A stretch of DNA of 64,000 bases, from assembly GCA_964495805.1 (NCBI GenBank), contig CAZBWV010000038.1:14676-78675 (forward strand). The letters are read 5' to 3'. The notes beneath the pieces were generated by a model. The model made no database searches, was not told the origin of the DNA, and saw only the letters and a list, made by a program, of their open reading frames with translations. Numbering within the stretch: the stretch's first letter is position 1; each line of letters opens with the position of its first letter. The DNA is from an uncultured Calditrichaceae bacterium. Its GTDB lineage: Bacteria; Calditrichota; Calditrichia; RBG-13-44-9. The translations under genes and the position numbers were made by a program. Below are positions 1 to 47,584 of the stretch, in pieces.

Positions 1-1270
1 TTTCGGAAAACGCCGGATCACGCTCGGATTCTTTTTTCTCCTTTTCGATGGCGTAGCGGTAAGCCTGATACACCGTGGCGGGAAGACTGGCAAAGGAGAG
101 TGCCCGCAGCACATTTCGGCGCTGAGCGTAGGTCATCAGGTTATCATAAAGCTTGCCGATATCCTGCAACACATGGCCGTACTTTTTCTTCATTTCCGGA
201 TGGGAATCGATGTACGCTTGCAGTTCCTGCTCCATCTTGCGTTTCTTTTCCAGCAAATGCAATTTCCGGAAGCCATCCAGCATTCCCTGATTGTTCTTCA
301 ACCCATTGTTCAAACCTTTGATGAATCCGCTCACTTTAATGGCGACTTCGGGATTCTTCTTCGCTTCCTGCTCCAGGGTATGGATGGCAGTCTGAAACAG
401 ATCAATCTGGAAAGGATAATTCACATTCTGATGGTAAGCGATGGAATAGGAAGAACGGTACCGATAGGTACGTCCCGGATAACCCATGATAAAGGTAAAA
501 TCGCCTTCACGGACTCCTGCACGAGAAATGGGGAAATAAACATCTGTTTTCAGTGGCACGTTCTCTTTGGAATAATCGGCAGGATTTCCTTTTTTATCCG
601 CATACACACGGAAGAAGGAAAAGTCGCCGGTGTGGCGTGGCCACATCCAGTTGTCGATGTCGCCTCCGTAATTTCCGATAGATTGGGGTGGTGCGTACAC
701 CAGCCGCACATCTTTGTACCGCCTGTACAGGAAAAGGTAGTACTTCATACCGCTGAACATTTCCACCACTTCCGCTTCCAGATGTTTTTTCTTGTTCTCG
801 TATTTGTCTTCTATCTCTTTTTGCCTGTGCGCCAGTGCTTCGTAGCGTTCCAGGGGTGTCATCCCTTCGTGCACTGCTTTGAGCACCTCGTCTGTGACAT
901 CCTTAAAATCCACCGTAAAGACCACCTCGTATCCGGGGATGGGAATTTCTTCTTCCCGGGAGCGGGCAATAAACCCTTTCTGGATGTAGTTTTGCTCCGG
1001 TGTGGAAGCCCGCTGGATGGCACCAAACGCCACATGGTGATTGGTGAGAATCAGTCCGTTGGGCGATACCACCTCCCCCGTGCCTCCGTCAATTATCACC
1101 ACAGCATCTTTGAGGTGGTACACCTGCTCCGGGGAGAGCTGCAATCCCCGTTGCTGCATCTGCTTCCAGGGTAAATCCTTCAGCTGGTCCAGCAGCCACA
1201 TGCCTTCGTCGGCAAAGGCAAAATTCATCAATAAAAACAAAGCCACAAAAAACACAACCAGGCGTCTCAT
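1..1270 (-). CDS. S46 family dipeptidyl peptidase (DPP7/DPP11-like), truncated by the window edge; missing from the ORF track
   Basis: Manual minus-strand translation from ATG at 1270: MRRLVVFFVALFLLMNFAFADEGMWLLDQL...GGTGEVVSPNGLILTNHHVAFGAIQ. Signal peptide plus the DEGMW and TNHH hallmarks of S46; frame runs off position 1. Confidence 0.9.
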   Translation of the reverse strand, partial: MRRLVVFFVALFLLMNFAFADEGMWLLDQLKDLPWKQMQQRGLQLSPEQVYHLKDAVVIIDGGTGEVVSPNGLILTNHHVAFGAIQRASTPEQNYIQKGFIARSREEEIPIPGYEVVFTVDFKDVTDEVLKAVHEGMTPLERYEALAHRQKEIEDKYENKKKHLEAEVVEMFSGMKYYLFLYRRYKDVRLVYAPPQSIGNYGGDIDNWMWPRHTGDFSFFRVYADKKGNPADYSKENVPLKTDVYFPISRAGVREGDFTFIMGYPGRTYRYRSSYSIAYHQNVNYPFQIDLFQTAIHTLEQEAKKNPEVAIKVSGFIKGLNNGLKNNQGMLDGFRKLHLLEKKRKMEQELQAYIDSHPEMKKKYGHVLQDIGKLYDNLMTYAQRRNVLRALSFASLPATVYQAYRYAIEKEKKESERDPAFSE

Positions 1271-2265: not shown

Positions 2266-4206
2266 TTATTCCACATACAGCAGAATCATGGTCACGTCAT
2301 CACTTAGCTCTTTTCGGGCACTGAACCGCCGAATAGCTTCCAGAATCAGCTCCTTAAGCTGATGGGGTGGTGTTCCGTAATGTTTCTTAATCAAATTCAC
2401 CAATCGCTGTTCACCGAATTCCTGATCGCGCTTATTTTTCACTTCGGTCACCCCGTCGGTGTACAGGATGAGATAATCGCCGGATTTCAGTTCCACGGTT
2501 TCCTGACGATATTGCTGATCGGGCAGAAATCCCAGCACGATGCCACCGGTATCCAGCTGGCGGACGGACAGGTCTTTGCGCACCAGCAGAGGCGGATTGT
2601 GCCCTGCATTGGTAAAAGTAAATCGGCGGGTATGCCGATCGATGACGCCAAAGAAGAAGGTCGCATAATACCCTTCTGCGGTGGTTTCGGTGAGCAGGTT
2701 GTTCAACCTGGCTACAATTTCCACCACCGGATAAATTTCCTTGAGCAGGCTCTTGAACCCCGCATAAAGCATCGCCATCAAAATGGAAGCAGGTGCTCCT
2801 TTGCCGGACACGTCGCCAATGGCCAGCCCCAGCATATTCTGTGAAGTACGGAACACATCGAAAAAATCCCCCCCGACAATACGTGCGGGAATGTTTACCG
2901 TGCTAATCTGGAACCCTTCGAAACGGGGTGGGCGCTCCGGTAACAGCGCCTTCTGAACACGGGAGGCAATAAGCAATTCGCTCTCCAGCCGTTTTTTCAT
3001 AACCGCTTCTTCAAACAGCTGAGCGTTTGCAATGGCTATGACCGCCTGGCTGGCAAACGTCTCCAGCAGTTCCAGGTCTGCGGGGGTAAAATGGTTCAGC
3101 AAATCGCTTTCCACGGCAATCACCCCCATCACCTGGTTGCCATACAATAGCGGCACGGTAAGCTGAGAACGAGTGGATGGCCGCACTGAACAATATTCCG
3201 GTGAGCGGGAGACATCATTGATGATGCTTGGCTTTTTGGTGGCAATCACTTTGCCGTAGATTCCTTTGTTCAACTTCAGGTGGATTTTGTCCAGCAGTTT
3301 CGGGTCGTATCCCCGGGTGACCACCCGACGTAACTCTTTGCGATGACGATCGATGAGAAAAATCCCCCCGGCATCGAAACTTACCAGCTGACTGATGGAA
3401 TCCATAATGGCGTTGAGCACCTCATCCAGTTTCAGACTGGCGGAAATTTTCTTCCCCACCTCCAGCAGCAGCCTATCCTGCAACGACTTCCGCTTAACTT
3501 CCGAATACAGCTGGGCGTTTTCCATAATGTCCGATGTCTTCTGAAATACGCGAATAAACAATTCCCGAATACTGTGGAAATAAATGTATCGATTCAAAGA
3601 ACTATCGAACAGCAGAAAACCGATATGGCCTTTAAAACTAATCATGGGGAAAAAATAATAGAACCGGCCTTCCGGGAGGGTACTAAGCAATTCGTCAATC
3701 AGGGGATGTTGCCCGCGCAATTTATGCAGCGGATAAAAATTTACATTCTCTTTGAACAGATTGAGAAATCCTTTTTTATTTTCTACCTTAATCAAACTGG
3801 GCAGGGGTAAATCCGCGGGATGGTAAGCCATCAGCTCATAGTCGCGTCCCCAGCAAAGATAAAACGCCCAGGCATGGTCGGAAAAATTTTCCTGAAGGAA
3901 TTTTTTAAATTTCTGAATCAGCACCGGGTATTCCAGAGTGGCATTCAGTTCCCGATTAAATTGCTGGAAAGAAGTGGAGATGCGATACAACTCCTGATAA
4001 AAATTTCGATCCACAAAATTCCGAATAAAACGGGTGATCTCTTCATAGTAATACAATCCGGGGATCAGGACCAGAAAGAATGCCAACAGCGAGGAATGAA
4101 CTCCCAACCAGGAGAGAAAAACGGAAACAAGCACAAACCAAAGGGCGAACAGTGCACTGGTTAGCAGAATGCGTAATGTTTTTTTAAAAAAGGGGCTTTG
4201 CTTCAC
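2266..4206 (-). CDS. GAF-domain PP2C/SpoIIE (RsbU-like) serine phosphatase with N-terminal TM helices
   Basis: GAF region followed by PP2C motifs VGGDFFD, IGDVSGKG, NAGHNPP, YTDGVTE, DDVT; GTG start. Confidence 0.88.
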   Translation of the reverse strand: MKQSPFFKKTLRILLTSALFALWFVLVSVFLSWLGVHSSLLAFFLVLIPGLYYYEEITRFIRNFVDRNFYQELYRISTSFQQFNRELNATLEYPVLIQKFKKFLQENFSDHAWAFYLCWGRDYELMAYHPADLPLPSLIKVENKKGFLNLFKENVNFYPLHKLRGQHPLIDELLSTLPEGRFYYFFPMISFKGHIGFLLFDSSLNRYIYFHSIRELFIRVFQKTSDIMENAQLYSEVKRKSLQDRLLLEVGKKISASLKLDEVLNAIMDSISQLVSFDAGGIFLIDRHRKELRRVVTRGYDPKLLDKIHLKLNKGIYGKVIATKKPSIINDVSRSPEYCSVRPSTRSQLTVPLLYGNQVMGVIAVESDLLNHFTPADLELLETFASQAVIAIANAQLFEEAVMKKRLESELLIASRVQKALLPERPPRFEGFQISTVNIPARIVGGDFFDVFRTSQNMLGLAIGDVSGKGAPASILMAMLYAGFKSLLKEIYPVVEIVARLNNLLTETTAEGYYATFFFGVIDRHTRRFTFTNAGHNPPLLVRKDLSVRQLDTGGIVLGFLPDQQYRQETVELKSGDYLILYTDGVTEVKNKRDQEFGEQRLVNLIKKHYGTPPHQLKELILEAIRRFSARKELSDDVTMILLYVE

Positions 4207-5563: not shown

Positions 5564-6496
5564 TTATTTTTCGGTTACCTTCAGCGTGTTCAACAGATGG
5601 TACACAATAAGCAGCTGAGTTAATGCCAGCGGATAGCTGATTTTTGTTACTTCACCATCCTGATATTCTCCGATGGTGGTGTTTCGCAACTCTTCAAATC
5701 CCGGTAAATGCCGCCAGATGGTCTCTTCCATTTCCTGAGCCTTTTCCGGCGGCGTGTCGCCGGTAATATGCAAAAAGTCCACCGGACGCCCCTCGTCGCG
5801 CCCAAGCGTGACTGAGATGCATTTGTTCCGCGCATTGGGTGTATCGTCGATGAAGTCGGAAAAATCGGGATGCGGAATGGTGGGACGCAGCACCAGATTC
5901 ACATTCAGATGCCCACCGGTTTCTTCCTTTTTCCCCTCCGGCCGATAGAAATTTACCACAATATCTGCATAGGAGCGCTGGGGACGGATGTAGGTTTTGG
6001 AATCGTGCTCCCTGGCTTTGATGGCTTTAAGCACTTCTTCTTCGGTGTAACCACGTTTGGTGGTATCCCGCTTTATTTTCCATTTAATGCGCAATTCTTC
6101 TTCCGGGTCCAGATACACTTTGACATCAAACACATCGCGCATCCGACGGGTGTAAAAAGGGAGCAATCCCTCAATAATCACAAAATCGCGTGGTTTCACG
6201 TACTCCGGCGGATCGAAATCGCCGGTGGAGTGGTTGTACACCGGTTTCAGGATCGGTTTGCCCTCCCGAAGCAGGCGGATGTGCTGCTCCATGATGTCGA
6301 TGTAGTTACAGTCCGGATGCAGGGCGGTAATACCCAATTCTTTACGCTGTTTCCGATTGTACTTGTGGTAATCATCCGCACAGATGTTGGTCACCCGGTC
6401 GGGTCCCAGAATTTTCTCAATCCCCTTGGAAATTGTCGTCTTACCAGCGGCACTATCCCCCACAATTCCCAGCATGATAGGTCCTTTTGGTCGCAT
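5564..6496 (-). CDS. prk: Phosphoribulokinase (cyanobacterial/Chloroflexi-like type)
   Basis: P-loop GIVGDSAAGKTT, ICADDYH, KPVYNHSTG, EGL, KIKRDTTKRGY. Start moved from the track's 6613 to ATG 6496, which follows an AAGGAG RBS. Lies in the RuBisCO cluster. Confidence 0.92.
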   Translation of the reverse strand: MRPKGPIMLGIVGDSAAGKTTISKGIEKILGPDRVTNICADDYHKYNRKQRKELGITALHPDCNYIDIMEQHIRLLREGKPILKPVYNHSTGDFDPPEYVKPRDFVIIEGLLPFYTRRMRDVFDVKVYLDPEEELRIKWKIKRDTTKRGYTEEEVLKAIKAREHDSKTYIRPQRSYADIVVNFYRPEGKKEETGGHLNVNLVLRPTIPHPDFSDFIDDTPNARNKCISVTLGRDEGRPVDFLHITGDTPPEKAQEMEETIWRHLPGFEELRNTTIGEYQDGEVTKISYPLALTQLLIVYHLLNTLKVTEK

Positions 6497-6621
6497 GACG
6501 TTTTCTCCTTCCTTTTTTATATTCCTGTGAAAAAAACACTCCTTTTCTGTCTTTACCCGAATATGGGCAAAGACTCTCTTTCCTTGTCCGGAAACTGACC
6601 GGCGAAGGCCCATGTTTCAGG

Positions 6622-7350
6622 TTATTTCTGCACTACTCTGCGAAACAGGTTCAAAGATTGAGCGTGTATGGTTTCCAGCAAGTTCAGATTGAATCCGGAA
6701 GCGCCCGGTGCCACTAAAATGGCATGGGCAAATGAGCTCCCGAAGGTGTAATCGTTATAAAACACCACCGTAGGAATTCCCGCTGCCACAGCCGCGCGAA
6801 GTCCTTCTTCGGAATCTTCCACTGCCAGGGTTTCTTCGGCAGCGTATCCGGTTTGCTCCAGACACATCGGATACAGTTTTCCTTCCGGGCCGGTCTTGGG
6901 ACCACTTTCTTTTCCCAGTATTACCCGGAAATGGGTGGCAAATTCGCTCAGCTGGTTCTGGAGCAGAGCCCGGATTTGCGTCTCGTAGGAGGTGGAGACA
7001 ATCGCCAGTTCCATGCCACGCTGGACCGCTTCGGCAATCAGTTCCCGGATACCCTCACGCAGGCGAAGCGTCGGTAAATATTTCTCGATGTAAATGCGCT
7101 GCTTTAACGGAGCAAACTTACTCACAATCTCTTCAATTTCCCCGGCGGGAAGACCCTGATCGGTCAGGGTCTTCCGCAACCGATTCACATTGCCCGGAAT
7201 AGGGAGCAGCTCCAGAAACTCCTCCCACGACCAGCGAATCGACAGTCCCAGCTGTTCCATGGCGTCGTTGCTGGCCGGGAGGTGACCGTACCGTTCACTA
7301 TCCACCAATGTTCCATCGACATCGAAAATCAGTAACTTCAATTCAGGCAA
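6622..7350 (-). CDS. cbbY: HAD-IA hydrolase, CbbY-like (xylulose-1,5-bisphosphate phosphatase)
   Basis: FDVDGTLVDSE motif I, LAIVST, AVEDSEEG; located between cbbM and prk; TTG start after a GGAG RBS. Confidence 0.8.
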   Translation of the reverse strand: MPELKLLIFDVDGTLVDSERYGHLPASNDAMEQLGLSIRWSWEEFLELLPIPGNVNRLRKTLTDQGLPAGEIEEIVSKFAPLKQRIYIEKYLPTLRLREGIRELIAEAVQRGMELAIVSTSYETQIRALLQNQLSEFATHFRVILGKESGPKTGPEGKLYPMCLEQTGYAAEETLAVEDSEEGLRAAVAAGIPTVVFYNDYTFGSSFAHAILVAPGASGFNLNLLETIHAQSLNLFRRVVQK

Positions 7351-7403
7351 CGCTTCACTCCTGCTTGATAAATGGGTCTCTGTTATGCGTCAAAACGTAT
7401 GGT

Positions 7404-8810
7404 TTATTCCAGAAAATCTTTCAGTTTTTCCCGCCATCCGGGATACAGGCGATCGGCGTCGTGCGGGAAGGAAACAAAAGCCCGGGCAAACGCGCGGTGT
7501 TCTTTGGCAAACTCAAACACATCCGCCCCTTCGCGCCACATCTGTTCGGCCTGGCGCATGGATTTGGCTCCTTCTGCCGGTCCGTCCACATGTCCGTAAC
7601 AGCCACCGCCAGCGGTCATAATCACGTTGGAGTGCCCCAGATTCTCGAAGAAACCGGGTGCGCGCAGGGCGTTCATTCCGCCGGAAATAATCGGCGTGGT
7701 GGGTTTCATACCCAGCCAATCCTGATGGTACATGGGTCCATCCGCCGCATCGGCTGTAATCATTTCGGCAATCATCTTGTCGTCCTTGTAACCTTCCATC
7801 TTCCCAAATCCCATGGTTCCCACATGGATTCCGGAGGCACCCTGCAACCGTGCCATTTTCGCCAGTACAAATGCCGAATAACCGCGGTTGGTGCGGGGAG
7901 AGGTCACCATTCCGTGACCGGCCCGGTGGTAATGCAGGAATTGATTGGGGAAGTGCCGTCGGGCAGTGGTAATCGCAGCGGGTCCACCGACAAATCCATC
8001 CACCAGAAAAGCCACGTGATGGGCAAATTCCCCGAACTGTTCCAGAATGTACTCTCCACGGGCAATCATTTCGAACGGATCATCTGCGGTAATGTTGGCA
8101 GAAAAGAGTTTGGCCTTGCCGGTCTTGTCCTGAGCGCGCTTCATGGCATCCACCACCAGGGGAATCACCTTCTTCATCGGAGCAAAAACCTGATTGCCCT
8201 GCGGTTCGTCATTCTTAATAAAATCGCCTTCCAGCCAGAACTCATAGGCTGCTTTGGCAAATGGCTCGGGTCGCAAACCCAGCTTGGGTTTAATGATGGT
8301 TCCCACAATAAAACCACCGTTCACCACCGGACGTCCCAGCACGCGCCACAAATCGGCAATTCCCTTGGAGGGTCCATCGAACAGCTGCAAATAGCGCGGC
8401 GGGAAATAAAAATCGTACATCTTGGCATATTCAATATCTGCCATTCCCTGGTTATTCCCAATGGCCAGAGTCAGAAACGACACAATCATTGCCCGTCCAT
8501 CGATGATGTTGCGATCGAACAGTTCCACCGGATAAGCGATTTTCATTTCTTCCTTTTCCGGGTCGATAAAATAAACCGTCGCATCGATTTTACGGGTGAA
8601 ATCGTCAGTCGTTTTCACCTCCACATTGGTGCCGGTGGAAGATTCCGCAGCAAAGTGCGCCGCCGCCCGTAAATAATCCCCGGGGGATTTCGGATCGGGA
8701 TAGTGTTTGGGATTGGGTTTCATCTTGTAGTAAGCCAGCACAAAATCCCCGCTGCGGATTAAATCCTCTTCTTTGAGATTCAGATTGGTGTACCGGAGAG
8801 ATTGATCCAT
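7404..8810 (-). CDS. cbbM: Ribulose-1,5-bisphosphate carboxylase/oxygenase, Form II
   Basis: MDQS start, [61 protein letters not shown]: the full catalytic set. AAAGGAG RBS; no small subunit nearby. Confidence 0.98.
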
Positions 8811-8907
8811 GATTAAACTCCTTTATGTTTTATAACTCCGTTATTTTTAAAATAAGACATGTGATATTTTTCTTTTTTTGAATATTCTATTCCAATATGG
8901 CAAACGT

Positions 8908-9897
8908 TTAATCGTATTGAATGGAACTGATGCGCATGAGTTTTTCGAAGGAATGATGCGATTCAATGTAGCGAATGGTACCGGTTTTTCCCCGCATGAC
9001 CATGGAGTGAGTCACGGCTCCGCGACCGGTGTACCGCACTCCTTTCAGGAAAGTGCCTCCGGAGATACCGGTGGCAGCAAAGAAGATGTCGTCGCTGGTA
9101 ATCAGCTCATCAACATTCAGTATGCGGTTGATGTCGTATCCCGCAGCCAGCACGTTCTCTTTTTCTTTTTCAGATTGAGGGTCCAACCGGGCTAATATTT
9201 CGCCACCCAGAATTTTAATCGCTGTGGCAGCCAGCACACCCTCCGGTGTTCCGCCGGTTCCCATCATCACATCCACATCGGAATCCGGAGAAACCGCCAT
9301 CAGCGCCCCGGCCACATCGCCATCGGTATGTAACTGAATGCGTGCACCCGCCTTGCGAATGTCCGCAATCAGTTGCTGATGCCGGGGTTTGTCCAGTACA
9401 AATACCACCAGATCGTCCACATCCTTACCTAATGCTTTGGCAATGTTTTTCAGATTATCTTCCACAGGTGCTTCCAGATCGATGACATTTCGGGCTTCCG
9501 GACCTACCACCAATTTTTTCATATAAAAAGCTGGTCCGGGATTAAACATGGTGCCCCGCGGGGCAATGGAAATGACCGAAATCGCATTGGGGCGTCCAAA
9601 AGCCAGCAAACGCGTCCCCTCCACCGGATCTACCGCCACATCCATTTTGGGACCCTTACCGGTACCGACCCGTTCTCCGTTGTAGAGCATGGGTGCCTGA
9701 TCTTTCTCTCCTTCTCCGATCACCACAATGCCATCGATGTCGATCACGTTAAAGCTCATCCGCATGGCATCCACAGCGGCGCCGTCTCCGGCTTCCTTAT
9801 CCCCCTTGCCCAGCCAGCGGGCAGCAGCCAGGGCGGCTGCTTCGGTTACCCGAACCAGGTCCAAAGCCAGATTTCGTTGAGGTGCTTCTTTCGCCAT
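8908..9897 (-). CDS. glpX: Class II fructose-1,6-bisphosphatase (probable FBP/SBPase)
   Basis: RVTEAAA, AVDAMR, VIGEGEKD, AVDPVEGT, DGDV, GGTPEGV. Confidence 0.95.
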   Translation of the reverse strand: MAKEAPQRNLALDLVRVTEAAALAAARWLGKGDKEAGDGAAVDAMRMSFNVIDIDGIVVIGEGEKDQAPMLYNGERVGTGKGPKMDVAVDPVEGTRLLAFGRPNAISVISIAPRGTMFNPGPAFYMKKLVVGPEARNVIDLEAPVEDNLKNIAKALGKDVDDLVVFVLDKPRHQQLIADIRKAGARIQLHTDGDVAGALMAVSPDSDVDVMMGTGGTPEGVLAATAIKILGGEILARLDPQSEKEKENVLAAGYDINRILNVDELITSDDIFFAATGISGGTFLKGVRYTGRGAVTHSMVMRGKTGTIRYIESHHSFEKLMRISSIQYD

Positions 9898-10026
9898 GAT
9901 TCTTTCTCCATATATTTATTTTGATTTCACCCGTGGTCTGCTTCGCATAGCTTCCCGAAACCGGGAACTGAGCAGACCCCACAGGTTTGGTTTTTTAGCC
10001 ACTGAATTGGAACAAACCGTACCGAT

Positions 10027-10707
10027 TTACACAGCTACTTCGCCAGAAATGGCACGATTGGCGGACTGGCGGATGTCATTCATTGCCTGGACAATATCCG
10101 GAGCACGGAAGATGGCACTTCCGGCTACCAGCACATTGGCTCCACTGCGCGCCACCTCCGCTGCCGTCTCGGGATTCACCCCACCGTCCACTTCCAGATA
10201 AATGTCTCGACCCACTTCCTGAATCATCCGGCGGGCGCGTGCAATTTTATTCAGCCCCTGCCGAATGAATTTCTGTCCCCCAAAACCGGGATTCACGGTC
10301 ATAATTAACAGCAGGTCCATGTCCTCCAATACGTCCTCGATGGTGCTCAGGGAAGTAGCGGGATTCAGGGAAACGCCGGCTTTAATCCCGTGCTGATGAA
10401 TGTTCTGGATGGTACGGTGCAAATGGGTACAGGCCTCCTGATGCACGGTCAGGATGTCGGCGCCCGCTTCCACATAATCGTCGATGTACAAATCGGGATT
10501 GGAAATCATCAGGTGCACGTCCAGCGGAATATCTACAATCCGTTTGATGGTTTTCACCATATTGGGACCAAAGGTCAAATTGGGAACAAAATGCCCGTCC
10601 ATTACATCGATGTGAATAAAATCGGCGCCGTTTTCCGCCACCCGGCGAACCTGCTCTTCCAGCTTCAGTAAATCTGCCGATAGAATTGAGGGTGCGATGA
10701 GAACCAT
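10027..10707 (-). CDS. rpe: Ribulose-phosphate 3-epimerase
   Basis: IAPSILSAD, HIDVMDGHFVPNLTFG, MTVNPGFGGQ, EVDGG, LVAGSAIF. Confidence 0.97.
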   Translation of the reverse strand: MVLIAPSILSADLLKLEEQVRRVAENGADFIHIDVMDGHFVPNLTFGPNMVKTIKRIVDIPLDVHLMISNPDLYIDDYVEAGADILTVHQEACTHLHRTIQNIHQHGIKAGVSLNPATSLSTIEDVLEDMDLLLIMTVNPGFGGQKFIRQGLNKIARARRMIQEVGRDIYLEVDGGVNPETAAEVARSGANVLVAGSAIFRAPDIVQAMNDIRQSANRAISGEVAV

Positions 10708-10751
10708 AATTGCCTCTTTTTCTGGTTAAGTGATCTGGTTGCGTGCCAGGA

Positions 10752-10808
10752 AACCAACCCGATGGAATCGGGAACCCTGACAATTCCCGATTCCACCATC
10801 GGGAGGTT
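10752..10808 (-). other. Long intergenic hairpin immediately after the fba stop codon
   Basis: ggaatcgggaa (10764-10774) pairs with ttcccgattcc (10784-10794), and cccgatgg (10758-10765) pairs with ccatcggg (10796-10803). Confidence 0.65.
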
Positions 10809-10809
10809 A

Positions 10810-11733
10810 TTATGCTTTGTTGGAACTTCCCAGCACATTGCGAATCTTGTGTTGTACCATTGCTTTCACCGCATCGCGGGCGGGTCCCAGATACTTACGC
10901 GGATCGAAATTTTCCGGATGTTCCCACAGTTCCTTCCGCACCGTAGCGGTAATTGCCAGACGAATATCCGTATCGATATTAATTTTGCACACGCCGTATT
11001 TGGCCGCCTCGCGGAGCATCTCTTCCGGCACACCGCGGGCACCACCAATCTTACCACCGTACTTGTTCGCCATCTCCACAAATTCCTGCGGAACCGAAGA
11101 GGCGCCGTGCAACACCAGCGGATATCCCGGCAGCAGTTCGGTAATCTTTTTCAGTCGCTCAAAATCCAGCTTCGGTTCACCGGAAAACTTGTACGCACCA
11201 TGACTGGTACCAATGGCAATCGCCAGCGAATCACATCCGGTTCGCTGAACAAATTCCACGGCCTGATCGGGATCGGTAAATACACTCTTCTCCGCCACGA
11301 CGTGTTCCTCGATTCCGGCTAATTGTCCCAGCTCCGCTTCGACCCATACACCTCGTTCGTGGGCATAATCCACCACTTTTTTGGTAATGGCAATATTTTC
11401 CTCGTAGGGCAAATGTGAACCGTCAATCATCACCGAAGTAAATCCACCGTCAATCACTTCCTTACAGATTTCGAAATTGGCGCCGTGGTCCAGATGCAGT
11501 ACAACCGGTACGTTGCTCTCTTCCACCGCTGCTTCCACCATTTTAATAATGTAGTTATGGCCGGCATATTTACGGGCACCGGCGGAAATCTGCAGAATCA
11601 CCGGCGAACGCTCTTCCTCAGCTGCCCACATAATTCCCTGCAAAATCTCCATGTTGTTCACGTTAAAGGCGCCAATGGCATACTTCCCTTCGTACGCTTT
11701 GGGAAAAATCTCTTTGGGTGTAGTTAATGGCAT
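10810..11733 (-). CDS. fba: Class II fructose-bisphosphate aldolase
   Basis: GAFNVNN, LHLDHG, SVMIDGS, EAELG, AIGTSHG, LVLHGASS, KINIDTD; start set at ATG 11733 after an AGGAGG RBS. Confidence 0.96.
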   Translation of the reverse strand: MPLTTPKEIFPKAYEGKYAIGAFNVNNMEILQGIMWAAEEERSPVILQISAGARKYAGHNYIIKMVEAAVEESNVPVVLHLDHGANFEICKEVIDGGFTSVMIDGSHLPYEENIAITKKVVDYAHERGVWVEAELGQLAGIEEHVVAEKSVFTDPDQAVEFVQRTGCDSLAIAIGTSHGAYKFSGEPKLDFERLKKITELLPGYPLVLHGASSVPQEFVEMANKYGGKIGGARGVPEEMLREAAKYGVCKINIDTDIRLAITATVRKELWEHPENFDPRKYLGPARDAVKAMVQHKIRNVLGSSNKA

Positions 11734-11815
11734 GTTCAGCAACCTCCTTCTTTCTAATTTTTTGATATCATTATTGATTAAGAATTATTTCGTCAAATTT
11801 TCACCCATTCTGTCC

Positions 11816-13831
11816 TCAGGCTTTTTGTTCCTTATACTGCTGGTACTTTTCCCGAATCAACGGGACCAGATGCTGGGGGGTGAATCCGTACGCTTCTTCC
11901 AGCTTCTGATAGGGTGCGGAATTGCCGAACCGGTTCAGACCGTACACAAAACCGTGGCACCCGGTGTATTTTTCCCACCCAAAAGTCACCCCTGCTTCGA
12001 TGGCCACACGAAATTCCACCTCCCCGGGGAGTACTTTCTCCCGGTATTCCCGGGGTTGCTCGTCAAACAGTTCGGTGGAGGGCAGGCTTACCACACGTAC
12101 TTTGAACTCCTGTTCCAGTTCGCGGGCAATCTTCAGAGCCAGATGGACTTCCGAACCGGTAGCGATGAGAATCATATCCGGTGTTTCCTGCTCGTTACCG
12201 TAAATAATGTACCCACCGCGTCGCACTCCTTCAGCGGAAGCAAGACGGGAACGATCCAGAACGGGAAGTTTTTGCCGGGTCAGGATGAGTGCAGTGGGAC
12301 GCTTCGTCTCTTCCATCGCCATTTGCATGGCGACTGCGGTTTCCGTGGCGTCTGCGGGACGCATTACAATGAAGTTGGGAATTGCCCGCAAAGATGCCAA
12401 ATGTTCCACGGGCTGGTGTGTGGGACCATCCTCACCCACATAGAAGGAATCGTGTGTGAACACATGCAAAACCGGGACATGCTGCATGGCACTTAACCGC
12501 AAAGCAGGACGCTCGTAATCGGCAAACACCAGGAAGGTGGCACCAAACGGGCGCAATCCGCCGTGTAGTGCCATTCCGTTCAGTAACGCACCCATGGGGA
12601 ACTCCCGCACACCAAAAGCAAAGTTACGTCCGGCGGGATTGTCAGGGGAGAAGTCACCCACTTTTTCCATAAAGGCACGGGTGGCGTTGGACGGTTCCAG
12701 GTCGGCTGAGCCACCCACCAGATGCGGTAACTGATCGGCCAGCGCTGCCAGCACTTTACCGAACGCCGCACGGGTAGCGATGGAATCGCCAGCGTTGAAT
12801 TCGGGCAGGTCAAACTTTTCCGGTAATTTGCCCTCTCCCACAAATTCCCACAATTTTTGAAACTGTGTATCGCCTTTTAATTTTTCCTGTAAACGCTTAT
12901 TCCATTCCGCTTCTGCCTGGCGAAGTTGATCGAAGCGGGAACGGAAGTAATCCACCACATCATCCGGTAAATAAAACGTTTTGTCGGGAGGTAATCCTAA
13001 TTTCTCTTTGGTTGCGGCAATTTCTTCCGGTGGAAGGGGGGCACCATGGGTTTCGTGGTCACCTTCGCGGGTAGCCGCACCCTTGGCCATTACCGTATCC
13101 CCGATAATCAGACTGGGTTTATCGGTAACCTGTTGGGCGGCCAGAATGGCGGCACGAATTTGTTCGTGATTGTGCCCGTCAATTTCCTGCACATGCCACT
13201 GGAATCCACGAAACACTTCGGCAATGTCGGTACTGTCCGCCCGTGTGGTGGGACCGGATATCTGAATTCGATTTCGATCGTAAAACATAATCATTTTCCC
13301 GATTTTCAGATGTCCCAGGATTGCCGAAGCGCCCAATGCCACCGGTTCCTGCAAATCGCCATCCCCGGCCAGCACATACGTGTAATGATTCATGATGTCT
13401 TCGCCCAGCATGGTGCGCAGCAGCACCTCGGCAATGGCCATACCGCCACCCATACCCACACCCTGCCCCAGCGGACCGGAAGTGGCTTCCACCCCGGGGG
13501 TCAAATCCGCTTCCGGATGACCGGGGGTTAAGCTGCCAAACTGACGAAATTCTTTTAAATCGTCTAACTTTAAATAACCGATCAGGGTGAGCAGGGAATA
13601 AAGTAGCATGGACTCGTGACCGGCAGAAAGCACAAAACGATCGCGATTAAACCAATCCGGATTCTCCGGGCTAAAACGAAGAAATTCCTTGAATACCACA
13701 TACGCCATATCAGCAGAGGACATGGCTCCACCAGGATGCCCTGAATTCGCTTTGCGGGTGGCATCCAGAATAAGTCCCTTGATAACCGCAACAACTTTCT
13801 GATCCATGGAAGCATTGGATTGTGTACTCAT
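11816..13831 (-). CDS. tkt: Transketolase
   Basis: SGHPG, DRFVLSAGH, TPGHPE, GPLGQG, GDGDLQE, THDSFYVGEDGPTHQP; probable start MSTQSN at 13831 (track starts at 13939). Confidence 0.96.
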   Translation of the reverse strand: MSTQSNASMDQKVVAVIKGLILDATRKANSGHPGGAMSSADMAYVVFKEFLRFSPENPDWFNRDRFVLSAGHESMLLYSLLTLIGYLKLDDLKEFRQFGSLTPGHPEADLTPGVEATSGPLGQGVGMGGGMAIAEVLLRTMLGEDIMNHYTYVLAGDGDLQEPVALGASAILGHLKIGKMIMFYDRNRIQISGPTTRADSTDIAEVFRGFQWHVQEIDGHNHEQIRAAILAAQQVTDKPSLIIGDTVMAKGAATREGDHETHGAPLPPEEIAATKEKLGLPPDKTFYLPDDVVDYFRSRFDQLRQAEAEWNKRLQEKLKGDTQFQKLWEFVGEGKLPEKFDLPEFNAGDSIATRAAFGKVLAALADQLPHLVGGSADLEPSNATRAFMEKVGDFSPDNPAGRNFAFGVREFPMGALLNGMALHGGLRPFGATFLVFADYERPALRLSAMQHVPVLHVFTHDSFYVGEDGPTHQPVEHLASLRAIPNFIVMRPADATETAVAMQMAMEETKRPTALILTRQKLPVLDRSRLASAEGVRRGGYIIYGNEQETPDMILIATGSEVHLALKIARELEQEFKVRVVSLPSTELFDEQPREYREKVLPGEVEFRVAIEAGVTFGWEKYTGCHGFVYGLNRFGNSAPYQKLEEAYGFTPQHLVPLIREKYQQYKEQKA

Positions 13832-13876
13832 GTTCGAACCTTTTGTTTTGGGTTTAACAAATGATGCTTTATTTGA

Positions 13877-13893
13877 TACAACCTTTATGCCAG
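13877..13893 (-). promoter_or_regulatory. Candidate sigma54 -24/-12 promoter for the cbb operon
   Basis: Minus strand CTGGCATAAAGGTTGTA versus consensus YTGGCACGrNNNTTGCW; GG-N10-G spacing is exact; -12 dinucleotide is GT rather than GC; about 45 nt upstream of the tkt ATG. Confidence 0.6.
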
Positions 13894-13982
13894 ATAGACA
13901 TGGGAACGATAAAAACACCGTTAAGCCGTATAGAAACAAATGGATGACGGTAATTTGCAGCGATCGGAAGAATCACACAGCT

Positions 13983-14010
13983 TGTGCCACACATGGCACA
14001 CCTGTGCCAT
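13983..14010. promoter_or_regulatory. Triple alternating half-site array (candidate activator binding site)
   Basis: GTGCCA 13984-13989, TGGCAC 13994-13999, GTGCCA 14004-14009, forming two overlapping palindromes at a 10-bp period. Confidence 0.65.
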
Positions 14011-14772
14011 GTATTTTTCTCCCCCTATAAAATCTGTCAAACCCTTCAAGGAGGAATTGTGTGAAGCGGCGATACTCGAAATGAATTAAATTTTTGCCCG
14101 AATATATGGTAGTTGTGTATAGTGGTCACGCTCAAAACAAGATTTTAATTTAATAATTGTTACATTGACAAAAAATAGATTGCATTTGGCCGACTTTCAT
14201 AAAATTAGATTTGACCCAGGAAACTTAGAAAAAACAAAAAGGTCATCATTAGAAATCAAAATATTAGATTGAATTCGTGTACCGGTCAAGTGGATTTTAG
14301 AGAAAACGAAATTCATCAAAAAGTTAAAATATGTACAAATGTGCGAACTCCATTTGCCCACGGTAAGGCGCCTTTGAGATTCAGCAATCCGTTAAACTTC
14401 TGAATGTCTTTCCGACCGAAGGAAGGTCACGTCCAGCGTTTTGTTCTCCACCGTGGCGTTGTCCCACATAGCTTCCGATGATGATGTGCCGGACACACGG
14501 GTCAACGGAATCATCCGCCATGCGATCTCAGGTGTCCTGATTGTAGCGAAAATTTTACATTTCCTTGCTTCGTGGATAGCTTATTGTGGCAAATCCAGTG
14601 TTTGTTTGTACAAATCAAAATACCATTGTTTCCGGTCAATTACATTTCACCACCTAACAATCCTGAGGATATATGCCATCATCGGGTATGGCTTTCCATT
14701 TTTTCCAGTTCTGCCCGGGTGTGTTTTTTGCAATCAGGTTTTTCTGCAAAAGGATTCAGTGGGTTAAAGCGG

Positions 14773-16104
14773 TTACAAGCCGTATTTTTTCATCAACCGA
14801 TAGAAGGTTCGGCGGGGAATCCCGGAAATCCGGGACGCTTCGCTGATGTTCCCACCCGCCCGGTGAATGTACTCGATCAGCGCCTGTTTTTCGTATTTTT
14901 CCATTAACCGGGAACGCTGACGCCGAAAGTCTCCGTCCGCTCGTACGTCCGGTTCCAGAGGGGCAAAAGTAATGGAAAGGTGTTCCGGTAAAATGGTGTC
15001 GCCCGTGCACAAAATGACCGCCCGTTCAATTACGTTTTCCAGTTCTCGCACGTTGCCGGGCCAGTGGTAATTTTTCAGAATCTCCAGCGCCTGATCGGAA
15101 ATCTTTTCCACCCGTTTGTTGAGCTTTTCCTCCGCGCGGGTCAAAAAGTGATAGGCCAGATAGGGAATATCCACCTTCCGTTCGCGTAGCGGGGGTAAAA
15201 AAATGGTAAACGTGTTAAACCGGTAAAACAGGTCTTTGCGAAACTGCCCCTGTTCAATGGCTTCTTCCAGATTTCGGTTGGTGGCAGCGATGATGCGTAC
15301 CTTCACATATTTCACTTCCGAAGAACCGACCGGCCGAATCTCTCCGGTTTGCAAGAACCGCAGGAGCTTCGCCTGTAAACTTAACTCCATGTCTCCGATT
15401 TCGTCCAAAAAGATGGTGCCTCCGTGGGCTTCTTCCAACAACCCTTTGCGGTCCTGTTCGGCACCGGTAAAAGCGCCCTTTTTGTACCCAAACAGTTCGC
15501 TTTCCATCAGCGAAGCGGTTAAAGCGGTGCAGTTCAGGGAAATGAATGGTTTGTCCCGCAAATGGCTGGCCTGATGGATAGCCCGGGCAACCATCTCCTT
15601 TCCGGTACCGGTCTCACCCCGCAGCAGAACTGTGGTGGGAGTCGGTGCGACACGCTTTACCAGTTCCATCACACTCTGCATCTGAGGCGACTTGGCTACC
15701 ATCCAGCGTGCATCGGGTAAATGCTGCTCCAGTTCCCGCTGAACGGTTAAATACCGCTCCCGGTACTCCTCCTTCTGCTTGCATTTTTCCACCAGCGCCC
15801 ACATAAAATGCGCGCTCTTCCCGTCGATGATTTCACACTGTTCCGATTTACACCGGTGTAACTGACGGGTTACTTCCCGGTCGCCGGTTACATTGACTGC
15901 AATATCCAGCCGGGGGTCGGCACAATAGGGTGCCCAGTGCCGTGCTACCGGAATATCGTGCTCCTGCGCAAAGCGAATGCCCGGTGCCTTCAGATTCTTA
16001 TCCACCACCGCCAGAATTTCCACTTCGGGCAGTTCTTGCAACAATTCCAGCAAATGCAAGCCGCCTTTCCCGGCTCCGACAACCAGTATGGTAATTGAGG
16101 ACAT
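14773..16104 (-). CDS. Sigma54-dependent transcriptional activator (bEBP) with N-terminal Rossmann-like domain and Fis-type HTH
   Basis: N-terminal ILVVGAGKGG...LAVVD; AAA+ motifs GETGTGKE, ELFGYKKGAFTGA, FLDEIG, AATNR, WPGNVREL; HTH GGNISEASRISGIPRRTFYRLMKKY. Confidence 0.95.
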   Translation of the reverse strand: MSSITILVVGAGKGGLHLLELLQELPEVEILAVVDKNLKAPGIRFAQEHDIPVARHWAPYCADPRLDIAVNVTGDREVTRQLHRCKSEQCEIIDGKSAHFMWALVEKCKQKEEYRERYLTVQRELEQHLPDARWMVAKSPQMQSVMELVKRVAPTPTTVLLRGETGTGKEMVARAIHQASHLRDKPFISLNCTALTASLMESELFGYKKGAFTGAEQDRKGLLEEAHGGTIFLDEIGDMELSLQAKLLRFLQTGEIRPVGSSEVKYVKVRIIAATNRNLEEAIEQGQFRKDLFYRFNTFTIFLPPLRERKVDIPYLAYHFLTRAEEKLNKRVEKISDQALEILKNYHWPGNVRELENVIERAVILCTGDTILPEHLSITFAPLEPDVRADGDFRRQRSRLMEKYEKQALIEYIHRAGGNISEASRISGIPRRTFYRLMKKYGL

Positions 16105-22531: not shown

Positions 22532-23284
22532 TTACATTTGATGGATTGCCCGGGCAAACTCCTGCAGGTAGTTCAAATTTCCCTGGGTTTCGAAAAAGTT
22601 TCCCACCACCACGAATCGGGCACCCGCATCAACTTTGCGGGCTGCTTCTTCCGGAGTCCGGATTCCCCCACCGACGATCACCGGAATGGACACCACCTGC
22701 GAAACCGCCTGAATCATCTCCTCCGGCACGGTCAGTCGCGCTCCGCTGCCGGCTTCCAGATAAATCATTTTGAACCCCAGAAATTCGGCAGCCAGAGCAT
22801 GAGCCAGTGCCAGGTCCGGTTTGTCCCGGGGAATCGGTTTGGTGTTGCTCATAAACTCCGCGCTGGTGATACCACCCGATTCAATTAGCATGTAAGCACA
22901 GGAAATGGGTTCGATGCCCAGGCGCCAGATTATTGGCGCTGCCTGCACCTGGGTGTCGATTAAATGGGTGGGATTGCGACCGCTAATCAGGGACAGGTAC
23001 AGAATGGCATCGGCGTGGGCGGAAATCTGGCGTAAACTACCCGGAAAAATCACCACTGGCATCCCATCGGATGCCTGTTTGACCCGGGCGACAAACTCAT
23101 CAAAATTTTCCTGAAGCATCAGGGAACCCCCAATAAACAGCACGTCCACACCCTGTGCCTTCATTTCCGAAACCGCTTCCTCCACCTGTTCCAGGGCAAG
23201 TTTATCCGGATCCAGCAACAATACAAACCCTGCCCCTTTTTCCCGTTGAATGGTCTGAAGTCGTTCGAACGTATCTGTTCTCAT
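22532..23284 (-). CDS. Geranylgeranylglyceryl-phosphate synthase family, group II-like
   Basis: LLLDPDK, FIGGS, IFPG, SLISGRNP, YMLIESG, YLEAGSGA, VGGGIR. Confidence 0.9.
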   Translation of the reverse strand: MRTDTFERLQTIQREKGAGFVLLLDPDKLALEQVEEAVSEMKAQGVDVLFIGGSLMLQENFDEFVARVKQASDGMPVVIFPGSLRQISAHADAILYLSLISGRNPTHLIDTQVQAAPIIWRLGIEPISCAYMLIESGGITSAEFMSNTKPIPRDKPDLALAHALAAEFLGFKMIYLEAGSGARLTVPEEMIQAVSQVVSIPVIVGGGIRTPEEAARKVDAGARFVVVGNFFETQGNLNYLQEFARAIHQM

Positions 23285-23515: not shown

Positions 23516-24019
23516 ATGCACAAGATGACGGAAAAATTTTTACACGATGCGTTTGCCGGTGAATCCATGGCGCATATGAAATACATGGCATTTAGCGAAA
23601 TTGCCGAAAAGGAGGGTTTCCCCAAAGTGGCAAAACTGTTTCGTGCCATAGCCTATGCAGAAATGGTGCACGCTGTGAACCATGCCCGGAATCTGGGACT
23701 TCTGGGAAAAACCGCTGAAAATCTTCAATCCGGTATCGACGGAGAGAATTTTGAGATCACCGAAATGTACCCGGCTTACAAAGCGGTTGCAGAGCTACAG
23801 GAAGAGAAGAAAGCTGTCCGTTCGATGAATTTTGCTCTGGAAGCTGAGAAAATTCACGAAGAACTGTACAAACTGGCTCTTCAGCAGGTACGGGAGGGGA
23901 AAGATATGGATATTGAAGATGTGTACATCTGTCCGGTGTGCGGCCACACGCACATTGGCAAACCCACGGAAAAATGCCCCATCTGCGGATTGCCACCGGA
24001 AAAATACAAAAAGTTCTAA
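23516..24019 (+). CDS. rbr: Rubrerythrin
   Basis: AFAGESMA, AEMVHA, ENFEITEMY, AEKIH diiron motifs; C-terminal CPVCG/CPICG rubredoxin; AAGGAGG RBS. Confidence 0.93.
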   Translation: MHKMTEKFLHDAFAGESMAHMKYMAFSEIAEKEGFPKVAKLFRAIAYAEMVHAVNHARNLGLLGKTAENLQSGIDGENFEITEMYPAYKAVAELQEEKKAVRSMNFALEAEKIHEELYKLALQQVREGKDMDIEDVYICPVCGHTHIGKPTEKCPICGLPPEKYKKF

Positions 24020-24037
24020 TATAAGGAGAAATTTACC

Positions 24038-24535
24038 ATGCACGAAAAAAGCATTGAATTGCTGAACAAAGCGGTTGCCGATGAACTTTCGGCAGTTCAT
24101 CAGTACATGTATTTTCATTTTCATTGCGACGATCAGGGTTACGACTTGCTGGCCGGATTATTCAAGCGCACTGCCATCGAAGAAATGTTGCACATTGAGC
24201 GCCTGGCCGAACGGATTCTATTTTTAAAAGGCGAAGTGGAAATGAAAGCCTCTGCGGAGGTGCAAAAGATTCAAGATGTCAAAGAAATGCTGAAACTGGT
24301 GTCTCAGATGGAAGAGAATGCCATTCTGGATTACAACCGCTGGGCTAACGAATGTTCGGCCAACGCAGATTCGGTATCGAAAAAGCTGTTTGAGGACCTG
24401 GTAGCGGATGAGGAACGGCACTACGACCAGTTTGACACCGAACTGGAGAATCTGGCCAAATTTGGCGATGGTTACCTGGCGTTGCAATCCATCGAACGCA
24501 GCAAAAACGTCGCCGCCGGTACTACGCCTGAATAG
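24038..24535 (+). CDS. bfr: Bacterioferritin
   Basis: Ferroxidase ligands DELSAVHQY, EEMLH (including the heme Met), MEEN, DEERH. Confidence 0.9.
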   Translation: MHEKSIELLNKAVADELSAVHQYMYFHFHCDDQGYDLLAGLFKRTAIEEMLHIERLAERILFLKGEVEMKASAEVQKIQDVKEMLKLVSQMEENAILDYNRWANECSANADSVSKKLFEDLVADEERHYDQFDTELENLAKFGDGYLALQSIERSKNVAAGTTPE

Positions 24536-36414: not shown

Positions 36415-36569
36415 TTTACCTCCCTATCATTTTATGCCTTGGTATTATGTAATCATCGCAAATATTTTGCAAAAGATTAATTCCTTGCAGGGAAAAACGT
36501 TATACTGCCGAGAATTTAATTCTCGTCAATGTGCCATTATCTGCCAGAGAGGGAAAACGATGGATAGAT

Positions 36570-46353: not shown

Positions 46354-46459
46354 TCCGGGACCCCATTTGTCCGGCAGGTTTCACGGAAGGTTTCTTGCTT
46401 CCGGCAAGGGAAAGGTTATCGGATAACATTCACAATAAATCGAAACGAACCTGTTCTCT

Positions 46460-47584
46460 ATGAAAATCCCATTTATCCTCGGAATTATTCTGGTGTTCAG
46501 TCAGATGCTGTTTTCCACCCCTCAACCGGATGATTCCACACAAGCCTTTATCTCGAAAGAGTTTTATCATTCCCATCAGACCAGCATTAAAGGTTATCCT
46601 TACATTTACTACACCCCGGAAACAGCGCTGGCGATTGGGGTTGGTGGAATTGCCACCTTTTACACCTCCCGGGAATTGATTTTACGACCTTCTAAAATTT
46701 CCCTTTCCGGTTACTATTCCACACGCAAACAATACAAAATATCCCTGACCCCCCAATTGTACATGCTAAAGAACCGGTATTTTCTGTCCGGAAACATCAA
46801 TTTTGGGGATTTTGTGGACAAGTTCTGGGGCATCGGCAGTACCTCGCCCGATATGAAAAATGTGGATTACGACTCGCGTGCATGGGGGATACTGATCAAT
46901 TTCCAGTATCCGCCGTTGCTTCAGTTCATGCCACAAAATAAAAGCGGCATTATCTACGATTACTACCACTACCTGATTCGCGATGCCCGGAACAATCCCG
47001 GCTTACATCATCCCAACCTCATCGGACGAAACGGGGGGGTGAGTTCCGGATTGGGATTCACTGTGGTGTGGGACACCCGGGATCACATTTTTTTCCCCAC
47101 CGCCGGTGGTTACTATCAGATAAAAGCCATTTACTATATGCGTTCACTGGGAAGCAGCTACGATTTTAACAGCTACGAGATCGATTTGCGAAAATATTTT
47201 GGATTTGGAGACCAGGAGGTCCTGGCAGTGCAGGTATTTGCCAGTTTTGCCGCGGGACACCCTCCGTTTTATGAGCTACCCATGCTGGGTGGCGCCAATC
47301 TGATGCGCGGTTACTACCAGGGACGTTACCGCGACCGCTATTTTATGAGCACCCAGATGGAATATCGTATCCATCTGTGGTGGCGCATCGGTGCCGTAAC
47401 ATTTCTGGCGCTGGGAGATGTGGCCCCAACAATGCAAAAATTTAATATTCGTTATGCGAAAGTATCTGGCGGCTTCGGTCTTCGTTTCCTGTTTAATCAA
47501 AAAGAAAAAGTGAATGTGCGAATGGATATTGGATTCGGGCAGGGAACCTCGGGAGTTTACTTCGGGATGGAAGAAGCGTTTTAG
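46460..47584 (+). CDS. Omp85 (BamA/TamA-family) barrel without evident POTRA domains
   Basis: YYTPETALAIG, DTRDH..FPTAG, MRGYYQGRYRD lid-lock motif, C-terminal EEAF; only 374 aa. Confidence 0.82.
   Translation: MKIPFILGIILVFSQMLFSTPQPDDSTQAFISKEFYHSHQTSIKGYPYIYYTPETALAIGVGGIATFYTSRELILRPSKISLSGYYSTRKQYKISLTPQLYMLKNRYFLSGNINFGDFVDKFWGIGSTSPDMKNVDYDSRAWGILINFQYPPLLQFMPQNKSGIIYDYYHYLIRDARNNPGLHHPNLIGRNGGVSSGLGFTVVWDTRDHIFFPTAGGYYQIKAIYYMRSLGSSYDFNSYEIDLRKYFGFGDQEVLAVQVFASFAAGHPPFYELPMLGGANLMRGYYQGRYRDRYFMSTQMEYRIHLWWRIGAVTFLALGDVAPTMQKFNIRYAKVSGGFGLRFLFNQKEKVNVRMDIGFGQGTSGVYFGMEEAF

Follow-up and report, generated by a model that had tools for sequence, protein, structure and literature searches.

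How is the Calvin cycle controlled in a bacterium of the Calditrichota, a phylum familiar chiefly through heterotrophs such as Caldithrix abyssi? The question is raised by a 64-kb stretch of DNA from an uncultured Calditrichaceae bacterium (contig CAZBWV010000038.1; hereafter the window), which carries on its minus strand, at 5564..13831, a seven-gene operon with the order tkt-fba-rpe-glpX-form II RuBisCO-HAD phosphatase-prk. To our knowledge, all well-studied bacterial Calvin-cycle (cbb) operons are controlled by CbbR, helped by RegA/PrrA or CbbRRS, and use sigma-70-type promoters. The layout typical of CbbR control, an adjacent and usually divergent LysR gene, is not seen here: no LysR-family domain occurs in any of the open reading frames (ORFs) scanned across the window, though the genome may encode a CbbR elsewhere, and the immediate upstream neighbour of the operon is a co-directional gene for a sigma-54 activator (bacterial enhancer-binding protein, bEBP). 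Between this gene and tkt lies a 17-mer that very probably serves the cbb operon as a true sigma-54 promoter, a reading supported by the analyses that follow. The strongest evidence for it comes from the adjacent bEBP gene together with a group of candidate enhancer half-sites, neither of which was mentioned in the first-pass annotation that had proposed the promoter.

A sigma-54-type element and candidate enhancer upstream of tkt

The motif CTGGCATAAAGGTTGTA lies on the minus strand at 13893..13877, exactly where the first-pass annotation had placed it. Direct reading assigns T13892, G13891 and G13890 to positions -26, -25 and -24, followed by C, A and T (the GG at 13891..13890 thus standing in a CTGGCAT context), then a five-base spacer AAAGG, then T13881, T13880, G13879 and T13878 at -15 to -12, and finally A13877. 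The bases bear out the claim of exact -24/-12 spacing with TGGCA and TTG kept and T in place of C at -12. The site, TGGCAT-AAAGG-TTGT, therefore has the GG-N10-GT spacing of the canonical sigma-54 register and its GG at -25/-24 within a TGGCA context; T-15, T-14 and G-13 are all present, and the consensus C-12 is replaced by T both here and in five other lineages. The same replacement is found in the Escherichia coli pspA promoter (TGGCACGCAAATTGTA/TTGGCACGCAAATTGTAT, read from NC_000913), which is sigma-54- and PspF-dependent. Since pspA shares the TTGTA of the window site, T at -12 does not disqualify the latter.

With T13878 taken as -12, transcription is predicted to start near 13866, giving a 35-nt leader (13866..13832) before the tkt ATG (13831..13829); these values closely reproduce the start near 13867 and the leader of about 36 nt proposed earlier. 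An AAAGG in the leader is likely the ribosome-binding site.

Upstream of this element, a word search and conservation pointed to a candidate enhancer, ATGGCACAGGTGTGCCATGTGTGGCACA, at 14009..13983 on the minus strand. Its 27 bp contain three half-sites, TGGCACA (14009..14003), TGTGCCA (14000..13994) and TGGCACA (13989..13983), which make two overlapping palindromes and whose positions, counted from the first G of the GG, are -118, -109 and -98. The sequence thus presents, alongside a bEBP gene, candidate upstream sites within the range of about 80-150 bp from the promoter that is characteristic of sigma-54 systems. The 89 bp between enhancer and promoter (13982..13894) form a putative looping spacer whose length is kept between lineages but whose sequence is not. 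Three of the nine TGGCACA matches in the window fall within 14009..13983; no second cluster of this kind exists in the 64 kb, and the other six are scattered. Two of the scattered words, at 36530 and 54889, were inspected and rejected as isolated occurrences with neither a palindrome nor a -24/-12 element.

We compared this arrangement with homologous loci and proteins (labelled L001-L180 and P0001-P0390, respectively). The activator belongs to an orthologue group (P0001-P0013, 56-90% mutual identity) inside a larger family of activators of about 450 amino acids. Seven loci, the window and six others, have the activator gene followed directly by cbb genes; the six orthologues are 59-69% identical to the window protein, and the seven linked loci cover six of the seven subclades of the group (five on a stricter grouping). 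A -24/-12 element with half-sites stands 5' of the cbb genes in eight lineages, comprising these seven and the closest relative of the operon, represented by L179/L180. Together the eight lineages present five different upstream contexts and three different first genes (tkt, fba or RuBisCO). Lack of conservation was one of the grounds on which the first-pass annotation would have given up its proposal, but the motif is conserved in all eight lineages, at a distance of 48-99 nt from the first cbb start codon.

In the window, the activator gene is preceded by genes for M16 peptidases and Na+/H+ exchangers and followed by tkt, with the site TGGCATaaaggTTGTA in between (shuffle p 0.021). Cytochrome bc/multihaem genes precede the activator gene in L085, where tkt-fba-rpe-glpX follows it (site TGGCATgtctgTTGTA, shuffle p 0.002), and the same four genes follow in L088, whose contig starts at the activator gene (site CGGCACgaaagTTGTG, shuffle p 0.09). 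The order fba-rpe-glpX-RuBisCO-HAD is found in L089, downstream of multihaem/Pyr_redox_2 genes (site TGGCATtaaaaTTGTC, shuffle p 0.14). FixG/FixH genes lie upstream in L090, in which tkt comes first (site TGGTATgccttTTGCT), and YjeF_N lies upstream in L092, which continues with tkt-fba-glpX-RuBisCO (site TGGCATaaggtTTGCT); the shuffle p is 0.0005 in both cases. Finally, the activator gene of L175 lies near its contig start and leads directly into RuBisCO-prk (site TGGCACtttatTTGTG, shuffle p 0.011).

In each of the seven linked spacers, a sigma-54 weight matrix that was fixed before the relatives were inspected has its best match on the sense strand, 36-87 nt 5' of the ATG. Columns G-25, G-24, A-22, T-15, T-14 and G-13 are invariant across the seven, while positions -20 to -16 vary freely, a pattern of constant contacts around a free N5 that is as expected if selection acts on sigma-54 contacts. 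Two of the sites, in L090 (TGGTATGCCTTTTGCT) and L092 (TGGCATAAGGTTTGCT), are near-consensus with the canonical TTGC at -12 (TTGCT), and because these two lineages carry the canonical C, the T found elsewhere can be regarded as a tolerated variant.

The half-sites follow the same distribution. In an unbiased word count, TGTGCCA is the sole 7-mer common to all seven bEBP-cbb spacers, and 7/7 was reached in none of 300 shuffles. The combination of TGTGCCA at -109 and TGGCAC at -98 is shared by the window, L088 and L089. In the remaining loci the proximal half-sites lie at about -93 to -113, deviating from the window's positions by no more than about 15 bp; TGTGCCA itself is at about -95 to -113 in three of them, and L085 has GTGCCA at -96 and the complete TGTGCCA at -138. 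The palindrome GTGYCA-N3-5-YGRCAC occurs once in the window and, among the orthologue loci, is confined to activator-cbb spacers apart from an extra copy 5' of the L175 activator gene. This copy is a perfect palindrome of the half-site family (GTGTCAATATTGACAC, L175 221..236) about 175 bp 5' of the gene and, judged from its sequence and position, may be an autoregulation site.

These motifs stand out from spacers that otherwise have little in common. A blastn comparison of the 941-bp window spacer with the orthologue loci and with the window itself returned no general similarity, so the motifs are isolated conserved islands and the spacer holds no recognisable repeat or mobile element. The L179/L180 lineage, whose tkt is 90% identical to that of the window and whose site is TGGCATaaaggTTGTT, allowed an alignment of 372 bp upstream of tkt. 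Within it, CTGGCATAAAGGTTGT is identical at 16 of 16 positions amid a diverged background, and the leader blocks AAATAAAG and AACCCAAAA..AAGGT are kept. All three half-sites are retained in L179, in the form TGGCACA-N2-TGTGCCA-N4-YGGCACA, with the bases between them changed.

The adjoining activator and its Rossmann-like sensor domain

The proposed cognate activator is a 443-aa protein encoded at 16104..14773 on the minus strand. From the N-terminus, it comprises a Rossmann-like sensor (aa 1-94), a long helix that serves as linker (aa 95-128), an AAA+ module bearing a GAFTGA motif (aa 136-380) and a Fis-type helix-turn-helix (HTH; aa 401-441). Pfam recovers Sigma54_activat (PF00158; 9.5e-72), AAA_lid_14 and HTH_8 (2.1e-10). 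The translation contains an intact Walker A (GETGTGKE), GAFTGA and Walker B (FLDEIGD), all of them invariant in 80 homologues, and the protein thus has the complete set of AAA+, Walker A/B, GAFTGA and HTH features by which bEBPs are recognised. It falls outside the named bEBP subfamilies (NifA, NtrC, NorR, PspF, ZraR and others): all 27 of its NCBIfam matches are below cut-off (360 bits against 529 for nifA and 316 against 559 for ntrC, for example) and begin at residue 104 or later.

The N-terminal domain (16104..15823) was characterised with an AlphaFold model, Foldseek and profile matches. In a Pfam search, residues 1-94 matched no family above threshold, and the sub-threshold matches were to DapB_N, Semialdhyde_dh and GFO_IDH_MocA. 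The model shows a five-stranded Rossmann-like domain followed by the long helix (pLDDT 91.1 in the model of aa 1-132 and 83.7 in that of the full-length protein). Its best Foldseek neighbours are the NAD(P)-binding domains of the acylating acetaldehyde dehydrogenase DmpF (1nvm_B), of GenD2 with NAD (6nor) and of Gfo/Idh/MocA proteins, with a probability of 1.00 and a TM-score of about 0.6 on the query. A profile of the domain matches acetaldehyde dehydrogenase (8e-7) and the NADH-binding Rossmann domain of Rex (5zz5 residues 81-156, E 1.5e-4). The sequence GAGKGG occupies residues 10-15; among the 80 homologues, conservation reaches at least 90% at G10 and G12 and is complete at D35, which ends strand 2. 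The domain thus combines a beta-alpha-beta fold with the GxGxxG motif and the acidic residue ending strand 2 that mark dinucleotide-type Rossmann domains, and we infer from this fold and these motifs that it may bind NAD(P)(H). Such an N-terminus suggests that the activator could be gated by redox state or by a metabolite.

A profile of the module matches 1,149 clusters (50% identity) at E <= 1e-10, whose proteins carry it N-terminally. Its carriers (P0241-P0390) include sigma-54 activators, PAS/GAF histidine kinases and hybrid kinases. This recurrence in both activators and kinases indicates that the module behaves as a portable signal-input domain, and it looks like an unannotated cytoplasmic sensor domain. 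A paper on the Desulfovibrio vulgaris sigma-54 regulome contains no description of Rossmann-type activators.

Searches for more distant relatives of the activator returned mainly proteins that share its AAA+ domain. When genome contigs were searched with the activator, 79 of the 80 matches were AAA+-only paralogues, and a scan of metagenome contigs returned AAA+ paralogues only. The one full-length relative, in a Methylomirabilota metagenome-assembled genome (L001; JBKPPN010000382.1), is 53% identical to the window protein and does not adjoin cbb genes. Downstream of this activator homologue, L001 7510..7530 reads TGGAACGCCTCTTGTA, where -12 is once more T, and beyond this site lie two small ORFs rich in Cys as well as a gene judged by eye to resemble the phosphoenolpyruvate (PEP)-mutase/isocitrate-lyase family. 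Promoters of the TTGT type may be common in the wider activator family, as may other targets.

Competing explanations and predicted mechanism

The motif could be a chance occurrence, with the operon transcribed instead from a promoter of the housekeeping type within the AT-rich spacer (TTGACA-16-AAAAAT at 14040..14013 is one example of a match) or by read-through from the activator gene. A number of observations lean this way and, together with some that are taken up further below, weigh against a sigma-54 promoter driven by the neighbouring activator. The pattern TGGCAY-N5-TTGY is expected 0.72 times per window, both strands included, and at least one match occurred in 48 of 100 shuffles. The frequencies in our weight matrix approximate those of published compilations and do not come from a curated file, and the matrix gives the window site 11.0 of 21 bits. 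The matrix check that the first-pass annotation had recommended gave a divided result, in that the site is the best match among the 200-nt sense-strand upstream regions of the 52 window genes and only the eighth best among all positions of the window. Given these figures, the motif alone is not beyond chance, and its support derives from context and conservation. The spacer between activator gene and tkt is also long, at 941 bp versus 214-325 bp in other lineages. Its surplus of about 600 bp (14100..14772) is AT-rich, has no similarity to the relatives and holds only an unsupported 108-aa ORF (14441..14767, plus strand). The stretch 13700..14900 contains eight sigma-70-like matches where 2.6 are expected, and no convincing terminator follows the bEBP gene on the minus strand; extra promoters or read-through may thus contribute to cbb transcription. 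Moreover, rpoN is not among the ORFs scanned in the window, although bEBPs with an intact GAFTGA, encoded in this genome and in its relative, lend its presence indirect support; a scan for the IHF consensus between enhancer and promoter yielded no consistent site, and the ligand proposed for the sensor domain is read from fold and motif only.

Comparison among lineages nonetheless makes a chance motif highly improbable. An equivalent element recurs in eight lineages at a fixed distance to both the first cbb gene and the half-sites, and it is identical over 16 positions in L179/L180 even though the spacers lack detectable similarity elsewhere. The TTGACA that the first-pass annotation had put forward as an alternative promoter at 14035-14040 does exist (minus strand 14040..14035) but is not conserved even in L179/L180, the closest relative. 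As for other explanations of the spacer, an Rfam search returned only a sub-threshold chance match, leaving no riboswitch or small RNA to account for it.

Conservation could also arise if the block were the operator of another DNA-binding protein, for instance a repressor acting over a different type of promoter, with its likeness to a sigma-54 element a coincidence. The support so far consists of sequence conservation, from which we infer sigma-54 binding, and the normally strongly conserved C-12 is T in six of the eight lineages. The half-site TGGCAC furthermore resembles the -24 element, and one TGGCA-reading protein could explain both blocks. We consider an operator of this kind quite unlikely all the same, because the conserved columns coincide with the exact sigma-54 contacts, TGGCAY and TTGY around a freely varying N5, and the block is asymmetric, unlike dimeric operators. 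Two lineages have the full-consensus TTGCT, pspA demonstrates that TTGT works, and the product of the adjoining gene belongs to a class that acts only on sigma-54 holoenzyme.

A further alternative accepts the promoter and assigns the activation of the cbb operon to some other bEBP, the adjacent one serving other targets. Orthologues without cbb genes downstream do exist (L083, which at 86% identity is the closest orthologue, L087, L174 and L176). L083 shares its upstream synteny with the window (6001..7600 compared with window 13832..16104), including two M16 peptidases and two Na+/H+ exchangers, and has a convergent two-component system in place of the cbb operon; between close relatives, the operon with its promoter and enhancer is therefore present or absent at this spot. 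Close to this locus, L083 also has a gene for another bEBP, one of the response-regulator type, and L179/L180 have no activator gene within 370-600 bp upstream of tkt. The linkage, although frequent, thus has exceptions, and the activator may act on further or different targets, which counts among the points against our preferred pairing. On the other hand, the bEBP-cbb junction recurs in seven loci and six of seven subclades (five if grouped more strictly) despite differing upstream genes and differing first cbb genes. The half-site palindrome is restricted to such junctions: in the four unlinked spacers, matrix scores range from -0.1 to 6.5 and the half-sites are lacking. The related palindrome 5' of the L175 bEBP gene, finally, is what autoregulation by the same protein would be expected to leave. 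These points render activation by a different bEBP improbable.

Under the preferred reading, in which the neighbouring bEBP activates a sigma-54 promoter, the elements would work together as follows. Sigma-54 holoenzyme would sit on GG(-24)/TTGT(-12) at 13892..13877 as a closed complex that does not open by itself. By means of the Fis-type HTH at its C-terminus, the activator would bind the three half-sites (14009..13983), whose centre lies some 100-115 bp upstream, oligomerise and loop over the 89-bp spacer to reach the holoenzyme. ATP hydrolysis, coupled through the GAFTGA loop, would then open the promoter, and transcription would begin near 13866. The Rossmann domain would gate the ATPase, most likely in response to a dinucleotide (that is, to redox state) or a related metabolite. 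Expression of the cycle would in this way follow a need to discharge reducing power or the arrival of a signal for CO2 fixation, which would fit a form II RuBisCO cycle that serves as an electron sink or operates at low oxygen.

Set beside characterised systems, the machinery matches a standard enhancer-dependent sigma-54 promoter, and what appears to be new is its wiring to the Calvin cycle. In core sequence, the closest known promoter is pspA (TGGCAC-GCAAA-TTGTA versus TGGCAT-AAAGG-TTGTA here). As in the pspA/PspF system, the activator gene adjoins the target operon, and PspF binds about 80-130 bp upstream of its promoter. In contrast, pspF is divergent, and PspF lacks an N-terminal sensor and is controlled in trans by PspA, whereas the activator gene described here is co-directional and its product carries a Rossmann sensor; the targets also differ, being membrane stress there and carbon fixation here. 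The closest layout is that of NtrC- and NifA-dependent promoters such as glnAp2 and nifH, in which palindromic sites lie about 100 bp from GG-N10-GC and a GAFTGA AAA+ activator with a Fis-type HTH acts by looping. NifA recognises TGT-N10-ACA, which the TGT-N12-ACA arrangement of the half-sites here recalls. The activator of the window nevertheless scores below all NCBIfam equivalog cut-offs, has its own type of sensor in place of a receiver, GAF or PAS domain, and has no evident IHF site at its target.

Functionally, the closest counterpart is CbbR, likewise a dedicated regulator beside a cbb operon. CbbR senses Calvin-cycle and redox metabolites, including ribulose bisphosphate, NADPH and PEP. 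It is, however, a LysR-type tetramer that acts at sigma-70-type promoters from a divergent gene, and the window offers a sigma-54 AAA+ neighbour and no LysR gene in 64 kb. Rex provides a parallel for the sensor, in that a catalytically inert Rossmann domain with GxGxxG and an acidic residue after strand 2 is used as the sensory module of a transcription factor. Unlike the present protein, Rex is a winged-helix repressor of sigma-70 promoters; the Rossmann domain here forms part of an AAA+ activator (and, among its relatives, of histidine kinases) and has the NAD domains of dehydrogenases, not Rex, as its best structural neighbours.

The remark in the first-pass annotation that no well-described cbb operon depends on sigma-54 agrees with our full-text literature searches, which found no sigma-54-dependent case for cbb, RuBisCO, Calvin or phosphoribulokinase. 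A 2025 cross-phylum survey of sigma-54 regulons makes no mention of these four terms or of carbon fixation. As a tentative extension, it is possible that Calditrichia and their relatives operate a CbbR-independent switch in which a Rossmann-bearing sigma-54 activator reads NAD(P)H/NAD(P)+ and turns on a form II RuBisCO cycle, all or none, as a redox-gated electron sink or autotrophy module, and that the same Rossmann module represents a widespread new class of redox or metabolite input that also feeds histidine kinases. Sigma-54 control through an activator would in itself combine essentially zero basal expression with strict dependence on a signal and on ATP. If correct, it would amount to an independent evolutionary solution to the control of CO2 fixation, in a phylum with a mainly heterotrophic reputation. 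The promoter, enhancer and sensor domain would then together offer a handle for predicting when uncultured Calditrichia fix CO2, and the analysis flags an unannotated sensor domain that is common to many histidine kinases.

Operon genes and other features of the window

The SHMT of the source organism is 86-88% identical to proteins recorded as coming from a Calditrichia bacterium. The cbb operon constitutes a complete Calvin-cycle gene set in a Calditrichia genome, and gene order and content differ among its relatives, with tkt, fba or RuBisCO in first place. By Pfam assignment, the minus-strand genes are, in order of transcription, tkt (13831..11816), a class II fba (11742..10810), rpe (10707..10027), a glpX-type fructose-bisphosphatase (9897..8908), the form II RuBisCO large subunit (8810..7404; 468 aa), a HAD phosphatase (7350..6622) and prk (6613..5564). 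The RuBisCO assignment is also based on structure matches, which are to the form II enzymes of Rhodopseudomonas palustris and Rhodospirillum rubrum and score as high as 790 bits; a small subunit is absent. The HAD phosphatase is probably a phosphoglycolate phosphatase. No convincing terminator was seen after prk.

Among the upstream regions of the window genes, the second-best matrix match is CGGAAGGTTTCTTGCT at 46384..46399 on the plus strand (9.5 bits), which ends 60 nt 5' of an Omp85-family gene (46460..47584).

Two features of the related loci concern the contigs themselves. L179, a Logan contig, begins at 1..19 with GATGTGTATAAGAGACAG, which we take to be a remnant of the Nextera transposase adapter, so that the contig owes this end to an assembly artefact. 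The relatives (L083 5740..5860 and L179 35..110) also contain several intergenic copies of a short, GC-rich hairpin repeat, typified by CCGTCCCTTCGGGACGG, that looks like a repetitive extragenic palindromic (REP) element; none occurs in the window.

Elsewhere in the window are genes for hemerythrin, for two SpoIIE-type PP2C phosphatases with GAF or Cache/HAMP sensors, for PcrB (GGGP-synthase-like) and for a pair consisting of rubrerythrin and a ferritin-like protein. The phosphatase, PcrB and rubrerythrin/ferritin-like group lies at 2266..4206, 54927..57074 and 22532..23284 on the minus strand and at 23516..24535 on the plus strand. The SpoIIE-type phosphatases, rubrerythrin and associated proteins suggest partner-switching signalling and an oxygen-sensitive lifestyle.

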